Virus record (IMG/VR): IMGVR_UViG_3300019776_000212
Span: 32,212 to 96,211 of that record
Length of the DNA stretch: 64,000 bases
From: a virus
Direction: 5' to 3' (one strand)
Within the stretch, counting starts at the first letter, position 1; the number at the start of each line of letters is the position of its first letter. Shown here piece by piece: positions 1,143 to 64,000 of this stretch. Below the pieces are notes generated by a model. The model was given only the letters and a program-made list of their open reading frames with translations, was not told where the DNA came from and did no database searches. The position numbers were made by a program, and so were the translations under genes.

Positions 1143-1163
1143 GCAATCCCTATAACAAATTTT

Positions 1164-1415
1164 CTACTTACGTGGTGCCAGTGTGAGGACACCAGCATAC
1201 TGCCCGGTATTGGCAAGTTGCACCTGCCAGCCCAAGCTTTTACGGCACACCCCAGCAGCGCGGAGGGCTTCATAGATGGCACTCATGCCGCCACCGTAGT
1301 TGAACTGACCCACCACATTAAGCAGCAATTCAGCTTCATGTGCGGACAGATTGAGTGTTACGCTGCCAGCTTCCACAACTACTGTACGATCAGGGTTTTT
1401 GATTGCAGTTGCCAT
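1164..1415 (-). CDS. early hypothetical protein
   Basis: Tight gene packing; weak similarity to 321/635 family (TLxLSxxEAxLL...IYxAL). Confidence 0.75.
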   Translation of the reverse strand: MATAIKNPDRTVVVEAGSVTLNLSAHEAELLLNVVGQFNYGGGMSAIYEALRAAGVCRKSLGWQVQLANTGQYAGVLTLAPRK

Positions 1416-1418
1416 GTC

Positions 1419-1730
1419 TCAACCCTCTTTAGTTTGTTTGTCGAATCGATACTCAATACCGGCTACCTTTGCATAGGTGAGGGTGTCGAGATTGATAGTA
1501 CGGAATGCGTCAGCCGCACCAACATCCGCTACAGTGTAAAGCTCTGGCTTGTGTGCAGTAGTGGACTTTTCACGCTTGTTCTTGTCACCGCTTGCGAGCA
1601 TACGCTCTACAAACTTCTTGCACTGCATCTTACGGATGCTGCCGTCTTTCTTCACGAATTCAACAGCAAACATCTGACCTTTTGCAGAGTCGAGAATTGC
1701 GCGCTTACGTTCGATAGTTACGACTGCCAT
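1419..1730 (-). CDS. WYL_2/SH3-like putative nucleic-acid-binding protein
   Basis: FAVEFVKKDGSIRKM...FRTINL motif typical of this phage family. Confidence 0.55.
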   Translation of the reverse strand: MAVVTIERKRAILDSAKGQMFAVEFVKKDGSIRKMQCKKFVERMLASGDKNKREKSTTAHKPELYTVADVGAADAFRTINLDTLTYAKVAGIEYRFDKQTKEG

Positions 1731-60165: not shown

Positions 60166-60255
60166 TGGTGCGTCATGGTCGGAATCGAACCACGCAGTCG
60201 AAGGACACCGAGTTTACAGCCCGGCGGGAATCCCAGTTCCCATAAATCACGACGC
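60166..60255 (-). tRNA. tRNA-Tyr(GTA), atypical D/T arms
   Basis: CTGTAAA loop, long variable arm, CCA. Confidence 0.75.
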
Positions 60256-60260
60256 ATAAT

Positions 60261-60335
60261 TGGCTCCAGAGTGTGGGATCGAACCACAGACCAACCGGGT
60301 AACAACCGGACGCTCTACCGCTGAGCTACACTGGA
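60261..60335 (-). tRNA. tRNA-Asn(GTT)
   Basis: Cloverleaf, G73, CCA. Confidence 0.88.
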
Positions 60336-60853
60336 ATTTTACTAATTTCTCTGATGAACTCATCTTTGAAGTGGATTGGAACCCACTCACCACTTTCATC
60401 AGATACTGAGAACTTTTCGAGAAGAAGCTTTTCGGCTTGCCTTCTGTCGAGTGTAAACTCGTAATGAGTTACACTGTATGCTCTATATGGATCATATGTT
60501 TGGAACTGAGACAGCCTCTTTGCAAGGTCTGTAGTCATTCCAATCTTACAATGGTCTGGGAATGCGGGGTTCTCTATAAGATAGACAACTCCAGCTGGTA
60601 TCTCTGTAAGCTTCGCACCAAGATACACGTTATGTTTTATGAGGGTCCTACCTGCTAGCTTCCTAGCAAGTCGTTTGTCAGACGATCTCATCCTACCGTT
60701 ACCAGCTGTAAACAGCTCTCCGTAGGTTTGTACATAATCGGAGAGAATTTCCTCCGTTATCGTGTATGTTGTGTCTGGGATTTTACCAGACTTGTGAAGC
60801 GAATCAAGGACTTTTAACTCCTTGTTAGAGAAACCTTCCACAGAACCTCCCAT
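60326..60853 (-). CDS. GIY-YIG (T5orf172-like) free-standing endonuclease
   Basis: GVVYLI...KIGMT.....RL..FQT.P...E...GEW; likely GTG start at 60841. Confidence 0.75.
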   Translation of the reverse strand: MGGSVEGFSNKELKVLDSLHKSGKIPDTTYTITEEILSDYVQTYGELFTAGNGRMRSSDKRLARKLAGRTLIKHNVYLGAKLTEIPAGVVYLIENPAFPDHCKIGMTTDLAKRLSQFQTYDPYRAYSVTHYEFTLDRRQAEKLLLEKFSVSDESGEWVPIHFKDEFIREISKIPV

Positions 60854-60874
60854 GTAAGTTTGATTAAATTTAAG

Positions 60875-61050
60875 GCCCGTTACTTTTTGACTGCTCCACG
60901 GGGCCGGGACCAGAGATGCTGGATCACCTCCTTATATTGTGTGCACGCACACTATCAAGTTGGCTTACAATCTCACGATTGTGTTCTACAGCTTCTGTAA
61001 TGCACAGTTGTGGCGGACATCAGGGATGTATGGCCAATGTCGTGCATGTT
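60875..61050 (-). ncRNA. candidate ncRNA with 17-nt complement to the 16S rRNA 3' end
   Basis: TAAGGAGGTGATCCAGC at 60934-60918, no start codon downstream. Confidence 0.45.
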
Positions 61051-61053
61051 TGA

Positions 61054-61123
61054 TTTGAACGTGAGGCATGCTTGCTGGGATGTCCACTTAAGGAGGTCTG
61101 GGCTCTGATGCAGCACGTTCAAA
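61054..61123 (-). ncRNA. candidate hairpin RNA displaying anti-SD ACCUCCUUA
   Basis: 10-bp closing stem TTTGAACGTG/CACGTTCAAA. Confidence 0.45.
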
Positions 61124-61125
61124 TT

Positions 61126-61202
61126 TGTATTTGAATGGTTGGACTCGAACCAACGCACACCACTCCTGCGTGGCAGCTCTTCCGACTGAGCTTACATTCA
61201 AA
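61126..61202 (-). ncRNA. tRNA-like RNA with 6-nt anticodon loop, no CCA
   Basis: Canonical D and T arms; GCCAC-GCAGGA-GTGGT. Confidence 0.6.
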
Positions 61203-61204
61203 TT

Positions 61205-61286
61205 TGGTAGCGAGACCGTGAGTCGAACACGTAGGCATCCGGTTATGAGCCGGGTGACAGTACCCTCCAGTCTTAGCCATCTCGCT
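61205..61286 (-). tRNA. tRNA-Met(CAT), enlarged D region
   Basis: CTCATAA loop, TTCGA, CCA. Confidence 0.8.
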
Positions 61287-61292
61287 ATTGTT

Positions 61293-61368
61293 TGGCACAG
61301 AGAGCAGGGGTCGAACCCGCCTAAGCTTCCTTCGTAGGGAAGTGCCTATCCAATCGAGCCATCTCTGT
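61293..61368 (-). tRNA. tRNA-Arg(ACG)
   Basis: Cloverleaf, CCA. Confidence 0.88.
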
Positions 61369-61374
61369 ATTGTT

Positions 61375-61439
61375 TGGCGCCCTATCGTGCCCTTAGTGAA
61401 CACCTATGACGGTGTTCTGGGGCCCAGCACGAATCAGGC
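61375..61439 (-). ncRNA. CCA-ended rod-like hairpin
   Basis: TCGTGC/GCACGA and GAACACC/GGTGTTC stems, loop GTCATA, ends GCCA. Confidence 0.5.
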
Positions 61440-61445
61440 ATAAAT

Positions 61446-62391: not shown

Positions 62392-62480
62392 CTTGTTGCT
62401 CTCCTTGTGTCTGTGTATATGCTCATTGTAGCAGGAAATTTACTCCTGTCAACAACTTTGTGAATCTTTTTTTTTTTATT

Positions 62481-62567: not shown

Positions 62568-62741
62568 GTACAGAGGTGTGCTATTACGCCAAAGGGAGAT
62601 TCAGCCTTACCGTTTCCGGGGTGCCTCTTCACTTTGCCAGTGTACGTCCCTCCACCCCACTACAGAGCTTCAACGAGCTGATAGTACACCTAGTCCCACT
62701 CTTTAAAGGATGGCTGCTTCTAAGCCCACCTTCCACTGTAC
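62568..62741 (-). ncRNA. 23S rRNA GTPase-associated-centre (uL11 site) mimic RNA
   Basis: AGGTGGGCTTAGAAGCAGCCATCCTTTAAAGAGTG...CGTAATAGCACAC, closed by GTACAG/CTGTAC. Confidence 0.7.
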
Positions 62742-63684: not shown

Positions 63685-63857
63685 ATAGAATTTGGCGCAG
63701 TTTATGAGGGCTCTTACCCCTGCTCTTTTACCGTCTTCAACCGCGAAATGACGGGGCTAGCTTACTTTCTGTACCGTCGTACAGTTAATTTGATTTGAAG
63801 CTCGGACAATGTACGCTCTATTTGGCAGTCCGATCTTTTTAAGAGACACTTCAAATT

Positions 63858-63946
63858 TGGAGGCGCGTGAAGGAATCGAACCCTTGCCGTATCTCTACAG
63901 CAGCCGGGGGTTCAAGCCCCGTTTGTACCCTTTGTAGCCACACGCC
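63858..63946 (-). tRNA. tRNA-Ser(TGA)
   Basis: Long variable arm, TTCGA, CCA. Confidence 0.8.
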
Positions 63947-64000
63947 AGAAATTGTGAACTGCCCTTGCCAAGGGATTGACGGTGGACCTTGCCACTGCCC

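Follow-up and report, generated by a model that had tools for sequence, protein, structure and literature searches.

A phage tRNA-cluster hairpin with a copy of the 16S rRNA 3' end adjoins a conserved non-coding RNA complementary to that end

Results and Discussion

Main finding

The tRNA cluster of the phage genome analyzed here encodes a 70-nt hairpin RNA whose tip contains a copy of the last nine nucleotides of 16S rRNA. The exact complement of this copy is found downstream on the same strand, inside the core of a non-coding RNA (ncRNA) that is conserved in Pseudomonas phages. The hairpin is a real, non-random RNA structure and its motif is unlikely to have arisen by chance. By this motif the hairpin would be an RNA that displays an anti-Shine-Dalgarno (anti-SD) sequence, and the reading that we tentatively favor is that it pairs with SD-type sequences, the core of the neighboring ncRNA being its first partner. 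The unusual feature is that the motif is a literal copy of the 16S tail, and that the adjoining conserved phage ncRNA is a literal complement of the same tail. The core of this ncRNA is conserved and non-coding, and most of the wider significance rests with it. If the hairpin does pair with SD-type sequences, the phage would have an RNA regulator made from a literal copy of the ribosomal anti-SD. Together with the ncRNA it would then provide a direct handle on the RNA-only manipulation of translation initiation by virulent phages of Pseudomonas that are related to the therapeutic Pakpunavirus and Nankokuvirus groups, and it would lend weight to the view that functional RNAs, not junk, fill the "spacers" of phage tRNA clusters.

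Genomic context and transcript

The stretch under study (the window, to which all positions refer unless a locus is named) makes up the right-hand 64 kb of a phage genome that is complete at 96,211 bp and has direct terminal repeats. Among named phages, its closest relatives are those of the vB_PpuM-Amme-3 group of Pseudomonas putida, P. aeruginosa phage XD2 and P. fluorescens phage vB_PF_Y1-MI, while Pakpunavirus and Nankokuvirus phages are more remote relatives. ARAGORN found 16 tRNAs between 58000 and 64000, all of them on the minus strand, and Rfam concurs. Because all tRNAs of the cluster are on this strand, the hairpin RNA is expected to be the reverse complement of the window. A preliminary description, made from the letters of this DNA, had placed the hairpin and its complement on one transcript. 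This is consistent with a promoter-like site upstream (Table 1), which could drive a transcript carrying both the hairpin and the ncRNA, and no minus-strand terminator-like site was found between this site (62452..62425) and the hairpin. Expression itself we infer, and the sequencing runs labeled RNA-Seq are probably DNA.

Table 1. Features around the hairpin and copies of the adjoining ncRNA in the window and in related loci.
Feature	Position	Strand	Remarks
Promoter-like site TTGACA-16-TG-TACAAT	62425..62452	-	sigma-70-like, strong; 11/12 matches, consensus match only
tRNA-like RNA	61130..61201	-	6-nt anticodon loop GCAGGA, no encoded CCA; Rfam tRNA 40.6 bits, no ARAGORN call
70-nt hairpin	61054..61123	-	10-bp Watson-Crick closing stem, two short inner helices, weakly paired tip
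ACCUCCUUA, copy of the last 9 nt of 16S rRNA	61089..61097	-	hairpin tip
Variable 5' hairpin of the ncRNA	61000..61047	-	closing stem AUGCAC/GUGCAU; between hairpin and core domain
ncRNA core domain	60874..60999	-	5' motif AGAAGCUG, covarying hairpins, SD-like core, 3' hairpin with conserved A-rich loop
17-nt exact complement of the Pseudomonas 16S rRNA 3' end	60918..60934	-	first 9 nt (60926-60934) complement the hairpin tip
ncRNA copy, window	60874-61047	-	
ncRNA copy, locus L001	1597-1779		
ncRNA copy, locus L002	1445-1640		
ncRNA copy, locus L009	1071-1273		vB_PF_Y1-MI
ncRNA copy, locus L018	1963-2096	-	
Further ncRNA copy, locus L020	about 1148-1228		
Further ncRNA copy, locus L014	about 1448-1530		PAK_P3
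Further ncRNA copy, locus L146	252-326		K8/ZGC-type Pakpunavirus

Structure of the hairpin and its tip

The closing stem joins 61123..61114 to 61063..61054 through ten Watson-Crick pairs, as the preliminary description had it, and gains an eleventh A-U pair in context. It contains no G-U pairs, so that the hairpin folds on either strand. The MFE of the 70-nt hairpin is -22.0 kcal/mol, against -12.3 +/- 2.5 in 200 dinucleotide shuffles (z -3.92), only one of which folds as well. The 9-mer ACCUCCUUA in the tip had been taken for the last nine nucleotides of 16S rRNA, and this is confirmed by named Pseudomonas genomes, which have a 29-nt 16S end finishing in ACCUCCUUA. The complementarity that had been noticed to an element about 150 nt downstream is also real: it is exact over nine nucleotides and lies 154 nt away on the same strand (60934..60926). 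A given 9-mer is expected within +/-200 nt on one strand about 0.0015 times. In the window, ACCUCCUUA and its complement occur three times against 0.37 expected, and the whole 96,211-bp genome also has three occurrences. The hairpin holds the sole anti-SD-sense copy on the minus (tRNA) strand. The other two copies are SD-sense on the minus strand, one being an ordinary RBS and the other the downstream element.

The tip is predicted to be accessible in part. Five of its nine bases are mostly unpaired in the predicted ensemble, three to four of the nine belong to a weak 3-bp apical helix, and opening all nine would cost about 4.7 kcal/mol. The CCA/UGG closure that had been drawn around the 9-mer is absent from the predicted MFE structure.

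Several other identities were considered for this RNA. The predicted fold is a rod, and it resembles the neighboring tRNA-like module in its closing stem and flanks only. ARAGORN and the Rfam tRNA model (E <= 1) make no call in 61054-61123, and no Rfam family matches 60854-61129 on either strand at E <= 1. The alpha-r14/Cuckoo family and other described families of anti-SD-loop sRNAs were rejected, as there is no covariance-model match (Rfam, E <= 1). A mimic of the 16S 3' domain (helix 45 plus tail) was also rejected. There is no SSU model match, the flanks align with Pseudomonas 16S/ITS no better than shuffles do (p 0.42 and 0.15), and the identity of hairpin and 16S ends at 9-10 nt, the tenth being the first ITS base. 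A coding reading was discarded as well, since the 61-aa minus-strand ORF at 60973-61158 overlaps the tRNA-like RNA and has indels of 1-3 nt inside it in X3 and X4, the two metagenome contigs that carry the hairpin.

The neighboring conserved non-coding RNA

The downstream element had been described as a "super-SD". It does not serve a gene, and is instead the core of a conserved ncRNA that lacks a start codon. No ATG, GTG or TTG occurs at initiation distance after the 17-nt element, and the frame is open only to an ATG 72 nt on. That ATG starts a 175-aa T5orf172/MUG113 protein, whose gene is absent from all relatives examined. In Amme-3, XD2, Y1-MI and two metagenome contigs (L018 among the loci), the ncRNA sequence leads directly into tRNA-Asn. 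A cis-acting SD-sequestering regulator of a gene was rejected as an identity of the hairpin, because the core has no start codon within initiation distance.

The core domain was defined by an alignment (A1), RNAalifold and helix tests. Homologs of the ncRNA are found in the Amme-3 group, XD2, Y1-MI, two metagenome contigs, Pakpunavirus and Nankokuvirus, that is, in three groups of Pseudomonas phages, and the family is positioned between the CAU tRNA-like gene and the next tRNA. Ten sequences, including those of PAK_P1, PAK_P4, K8 and ZGC (Pakpunavirus) and PAK_P3 (Nankokuvirus), share the core GGAGGUGAUC without any change, and at least 123 Pakpunavirus records cover at least 80% of the query. 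In the family the core reads GGAGGUGAUC(C/U)AG and can pair with 13-17 nt at the 3' end of 16S rRNA, and no ORF follows it. The hairpins of the ncRNA show compensatory changes, such as GUGUGC...GCACAC versus GCCUGC...GCAGGC. The variable 5' hairpin (61000..61047) keeps its closing stem in Amme-3 and XD2 with a divergent interior, and has many substitutions and indels in X3 and X4. A small CCAG/CUGG hairpin after the core is confined to the clade of the window.

Two mutually exclusive internal helices fit 10 of the 10 sequences: one joins AGAAGCUG to CAGNAUCU after the core and the other joins GGAGGUG to CAUCUCY. In such models these helices could form a switch in the ncRNA. The GAUC of the core is unpaired, in a loop, in either helix model, yet it is invariant, and pairing with an outside partner, the 16S tail, would explain this best. 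The core probably docks on 30S subunits, to judge from its complementarity.

In PAK_P4, the RNA-seq-annotated PAK_P4sRNA1 stands directly 5' of the core motif, on the tRNA strand (PMC5563952). In PAK_P3, the core motif follows "putative promoter_18" by about 45 nt, at the head of the tRNA region (L014 1398-1514, equivalent to PAK_P3 85,897-86,013). The motif itself maps to about 85,967-86,013 in PAK_P3 and 92,088-92,140 in PAK_P4. The sRNA1 and sRNA2 of PAK_P3 were considered as relatives and found non-homologous to both the hairpin and the core. No published description of the conserved ncRNA element was found in the literature. Exact-pattern scans of IMG/VR with the 17-mer and with the core plus A-rich loop returned ordinary gene starts only.

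Distribution, conservation and origin of the hairpin

The hairpin has a narrower distribution than the ncRNA. It is absent from Amme-3, XD2, Y1-MI, PAK_P1 and PAK_P3. A soil contig (run X1, Logan) has neither the hairpin nor the tRNA-like module, as in Amme-3. When 60300-61300 was compared by BLAST with 50,697 phage records, no record covered the hairpin or the tRNA-like module. In IMG/VR the exact 18-nt pattern of the tip had 0 matches, and a permissive pattern of handle, aSD and handle had 45, all unrelated and mostly the antisense side of ordinary RBSs. Five complete remoter IMG/VR relatives, reached through an 862-aa neighbor protein, had no match to the hairpin or ncRNA at BLAST sensitivity, a result of low evidential weight.

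Two Logan contigs carry the hairpin. X3, an 85.7-kb phage contig from a mine metagenome, covers 60875-61213, with the hairpin and the tRNA-like module included. X4, a wastewater contig, covers 60870-61127 and then joins directly to the CAU tRNA-like gene; its hairpin still adjoins the ncRNA, yet the tRNA-like module is missing. Both hairpin copies are identical to ours at 69 of 70 bases, the only change being 61064 A>G in a 2x2 internal loop, where no base pair is affected, and 17 gap letters of X4 that are not itemized may include an indel within its copy. In the 52-nt spacer between the hairpin and the ncRNA core, X3 and X4 each show six substitutions, and X3 has 15 indel letters as well. 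In X3, the difference in divergence between hairpin and spacer has a Fisher p of 1.5e-8 with indels counted and 0.04 with substitutions only. This pattern suggests that the hairpin is either constrained over its full length, loops included, or was recently exchanged between lineages. The three hairpin-bearing lineages probably stem from one insertion, and therefore the adjacency of hairpin and ncRNA is not independent evidence.

From the CAU-anticodon tRNA-like gene to the ncRNA, the window is about 150 bases longer than Amme-3, and this surplus is made up of the tRNA-like RNA followed by the hairpin. The tRNA-like RNA (61130..61201) has intact acceptor, D and T arms, and its loop GCAGGA contains an SD-like AGGA. 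It is present in X3 and absent in X4, and in this phage it was inserted together with the hairpin. A flank-and-stem design, CAAA-UUUGAA...UUCAAA-U, is common to the hairpin, the tRNA-like RNA and a module at 63794-63855 (3 matches versus 0.30 expected), and the interiors of these three modules do not align with each other. This shared design suggests that modules are shuffled within tRNA clusters and that they have a processing handle in common.

Pairing of the tip with the core

The preferred explanation takes the hairpin as a real accessory module of the phage tRNA operon, which selection has kept or which was exchanged recently. It would be transcribed on the minus strand together with the tRNAs. 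Its acceptor-like closing stem and its CAAA-type flanks, the latter also present in two neighboring modules, make it probable that it is cut out along with the tRNAs. Its flexible tip would pair with SD-type sequences, the first of them being the orphan SD-like core. By competing for the first 9 nt of the 16S-complementary site, the hairpin would delay or damp the docking of 30S subunits.

The preliminary description had suggested joint folding of both elements as a check. In the joint MFE structure (264 nt) each element folds locally and the pairing is absent, and forcing the nested 9-bp helix between tip and core changes the ensemble energy by +1.1 kcal/mol. The 9-bp duplex is worth -12.5 kcal/mol, opening the core costs +5.8 kcal/mol, and a loop-to-strand contact in which the hairpin stem is kept has a net value of about -2 kcal/mol. 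Pairing of tip and core is thus predicted to be feasible but marginal. Pairing between core and 16S tail, over 14 or 17 bp, is predicted at -24 to -32 kcal/mol. As this pairing is far stronger than the contact with the tip, the 30S subunit would win at equilibrium, and these energetics mean that a hairpin mask could delay or damp docking and would not prevent it.

The hairpin always adjoins the ncRNA, but the co-occurrence that had been proposed as a check is not strict, as the core is present without the hairpin in most relatives, namely in the Amme-3 group, XD2, Y1-MI, two metagenome contigs, X1, Pakpunavirus and Nankokuvirus. For this reason masking would be an accessory function at most. 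Tip and core are both invariant in X3 and X4, so that there is no covariation to test. The earlier idea that the hairpin internally masks a 16S-complementary element is viable, and we prefer it in a modified form, in which the partner is not the SD of a gene, the pairing is not part of the MFE structure and the two elements do not strictly co-occur.

Indirect support for masking may come from Pakpunavirus. Phages of the K8/ZGC type (L146 290-326, L147) have a cis partner, ACCUCCUA, 38 nt 3' of the core. It can pair over 8 bp with UAGGAGGU, the variant of the core that these phages have, and is no copy of the 16S tail. In the MFE structure it is paired with the core and closes the element. In PAK_P1-type phages the 3' stretch is different, ACCUC-AUG, and is able to pair in another register. 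In these models ACCUCCUA looks like a lineage-matched mask. A cis partner fitted to the local core variant is predicted by masking and not by a 16S decoy.

Alternative explanations

The hairpin may have no anti-SD function, being a structural or processing spacer or a decayed tRNA-like duplicate in which the 9-mer is fortuitous and the identity between lineages reflects recent lateral exchange. We consider this a serious rival, though somewhat unlikely. Duplication or shuffling is suggested by the closing stem and flanks that the hairpin shares with the adjacent tRNA-like RNA and the 63794-63855 module. X4 shows modular gain or loss, most relatives do without the hairpin, the tip is partly paired, its complementarity is unused in the joint MFE structure, and our search for a meaning was post hoc. 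However, a fortuitous 9-mer would have to account for an exact complement at a distance where it is rarely expected, and for the hairpin being the only anti-SD-sense copy on the tRNA strand of the genome. In addition, loops as well as stems are unchanged in two relatives whose neighboring spacer is scrambled, and a lineage-matched cis partner occurs in Pakpunavirus. If the 9-mer is nevertheless fortuitous, what is left is an additional processed hairpin within a tRNA cluster of mosaic make-up.

An anti-SD riboregulator that acts in trans on messages of the phage, or of its host, is equally possible on sequence grounds, and we regard it as unlikely overall. The excised hairpin would occlude strong RBSs of the UAAGGAGGU type, and the neighboring ncRNA would not be its main partner. 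The phage itself uses RBSs of this kind. The tip (GACCUCCUUAAG) is complementary over 9 nt, as it is to the core, to three of them: those of two paralogous genes for virion proteins (phrog_280; window 45919 and 46434) and a plus-strand RBS at genome position 22474. Its complementarity extends over 8 nt at about ten more sites directly before start codons. The aSD motifs in the hairpin loops of NfeR1 have been shown experimentally to silence target RBSs (PMC10746234). But a regulator of the NfeR1 kind would lack selectivity here, since it would bind nearly every strong RBS of the phage. The hairpin also has a single aSD motif, partly paired, no Rfam family match and a restricted distribution. 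A genome-wide duplexfold of the 38-nt tip was uninformative, GC-rich partial matches being dominant.

The preferred pairing of tip and core could be part of a more elaborate two-part device, which we regard as quite improbable as a whole. The ncRNA would dock on the 16S 3' end through 13-17 bp and park or redirect 30S subunits, the hairpin with its copy of the tail would act as an antidote or timer in some lineages, and both would belong to a larger array of rRNA-imitating RNAs between the tRNA genes.

The preliminary description had proposed, as its other option, that the hairpin is a decoy of the 16S 3' tail for nucleases that cleave the anti-SD. In a wider form, such a decoy would draw off a nuclease, toxin or protein that recognizes the anti-SD (of the MazF type or other defense RNases) and so protect ribosomes during infection. 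This is poorly supported and very unlikely. Phage tRNA clusters are known to counter RNA-cleaving defenses (PMC10264068, PMC11555353, PMC11464382), MazF toxins that remove the aSD exist (PMC12274833), and the same cluster has a match to the GTPase center of the Rfam large-subunit rRNA model (62682-62735, E 9.4e-5). However, the identity to 16S/ITS stops at 9-10 nt without an Rfam SSU match. The MazF-mt11 site CACCU (PMC12274833) is absent, the hairpin having GACCU, and the motif is internal and partly paired and not a free 3' end. Such a decoy would also need stoichiometric competition with the whole ribosome pool, and no candidate enzyme in Pseudomonas is known to us.

Finally, it is highly improbable that the plus strand is the functional one. 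An antisense RNA from this strand would have a small hairpin, then 17 nt identical to the 16S tail, and then a hairpin with an SD-like loop. In its favor, the hairpin can fold on either strand, the tRNA region of PAK_P3 has annotated antisense RNAs and there is a weak plus-strand promoter-like site (60709-60738, 9/12). Against it, the minus strand has all the tRNAs and the strong promoter-like site, the covarying ncRNA helices have U-G pairs that would be C-A on the plus strand, and PAK_P4sRNA1 beside the homologous core is annotated on the tRNA strand.

Comparison with known RNAs

RsaE and RNAIII are sRNAs with anti-SD loops. The alpha-r14/NfeR1 RNAs ("Cuckoo", RF02344) resemble the hairpin in having a pyrimidine anti-SD motif at the tip of a hairpin, unpaired in these RNAs and predicted to be partly unpaired here, which could occlude SDs by antisense pairing. 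The hairpin is unrelated to them in sequence and in Rfam, and carries one motif where the known system has three redundant ones. It lies within a phage tRNA operon without a terminator of its own, and its motif reproduces the last 9 nt of 16S rRNA exactly. The best partner nearby is not an mRNA but the orphan SD-like site of a different ncRNA. Compared with the 3' tail of 16S rRNA itself (Pseudomonas ...GCUGGAUCACCUCCUUA), the last 9 nt are identical, but the motif is internal in the hairpin and 3'-terminal in 16S.

Riboswitch expression platforms and RNA thermometers are cis-acting elements that sequester through anti-SD sequences. Like them, the hairpin and core present anti-SD and SD-type stretches on one transcript that are able to pair. 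In contrast to these elements, the SD-type stretch precedes no start codon here, with a tRNA next in relatives, and the pairing is long-range (154 nt) and outside the MFE structure.

The core of the ncRNA can be compared with the orphan SD stabilizers of Bacillus (STAB-SD and SP82-type), which are 5' stabilizers of mRNAs in Gram-positives. Both have an SD-like sequence without a start codon that would bind 30S subunits on untranslated RNA. However, the core lies inside a structured ncRNA between Pseudomonas phage tRNAs and has 13-17 nt of complementarity.

Abundant non-tRNA RNAs that are processed free are known between phage tRNA genes, as PAK_P4sRNA1 and PAK_P3 sRNA2 (PMC4933390, PMC5563952, PMC10914365), and T4 band C/D RNAs are cited in PMC4933390 as small RNAs of a phage tRNA cluster. 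PAK_P4sRNA1 and PAK_P3 sRNA2 have no sequence similarity to the hairpin, and none of them is described with a copy of the 16S tail.

Other elements of the tRNA cluster

Several further elements were observed in the cluster, all on the minus strand. The T5orf172/MUG113 (GIY-YIG-like) ORF of 175 aa (60326-60853) is an insertion that separates the ncRNA from tRNA-Asn, and it overlaps the 5' end of tRNA-Asn by its last 10 nt. The ATG lacks an SD, and GGAGG precedes a GTG located four codons into the ORF. No relative of the protein was found in IMG/VR. The CAU tRNA-like gene (61205-61289) has 85 nt, a CAU anticodon loop and an enlarged D region, and is not called by ARAGORN or by the Rfam tRNA model (E <= 1). 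About 136 records of Pseudomonas phages have it at 78-85% identity, and in some of them it is annotated as tRNA-Met.

Two hairpin modules are not tRNAs: 61372-61442, a CCA-ended rod (z -3.4), and 63794-63855, with the UUUGAA/UUCAAA handle (z -2.4). The large-subunit rRNA match (62682-62735) lies between two tRNAs and corresponds to positions 1180-1233 of the Rfam model, the GTPase-associated center, with 26 bits. Weak matches to the Rfam tRNA-Sec model were found at 60170-60255 and 63861-63947 (28 and 32 bits, below the gathering score), with no ARAGORN call, and these may be long-arm tRNAs or tRNA-like RNAs. In the vB_PF_Y1-MI record OR500437.1 (L009), the GenBank tRNA features are on the strand opposite to that of ARAGORN, which looks like an annotation error.
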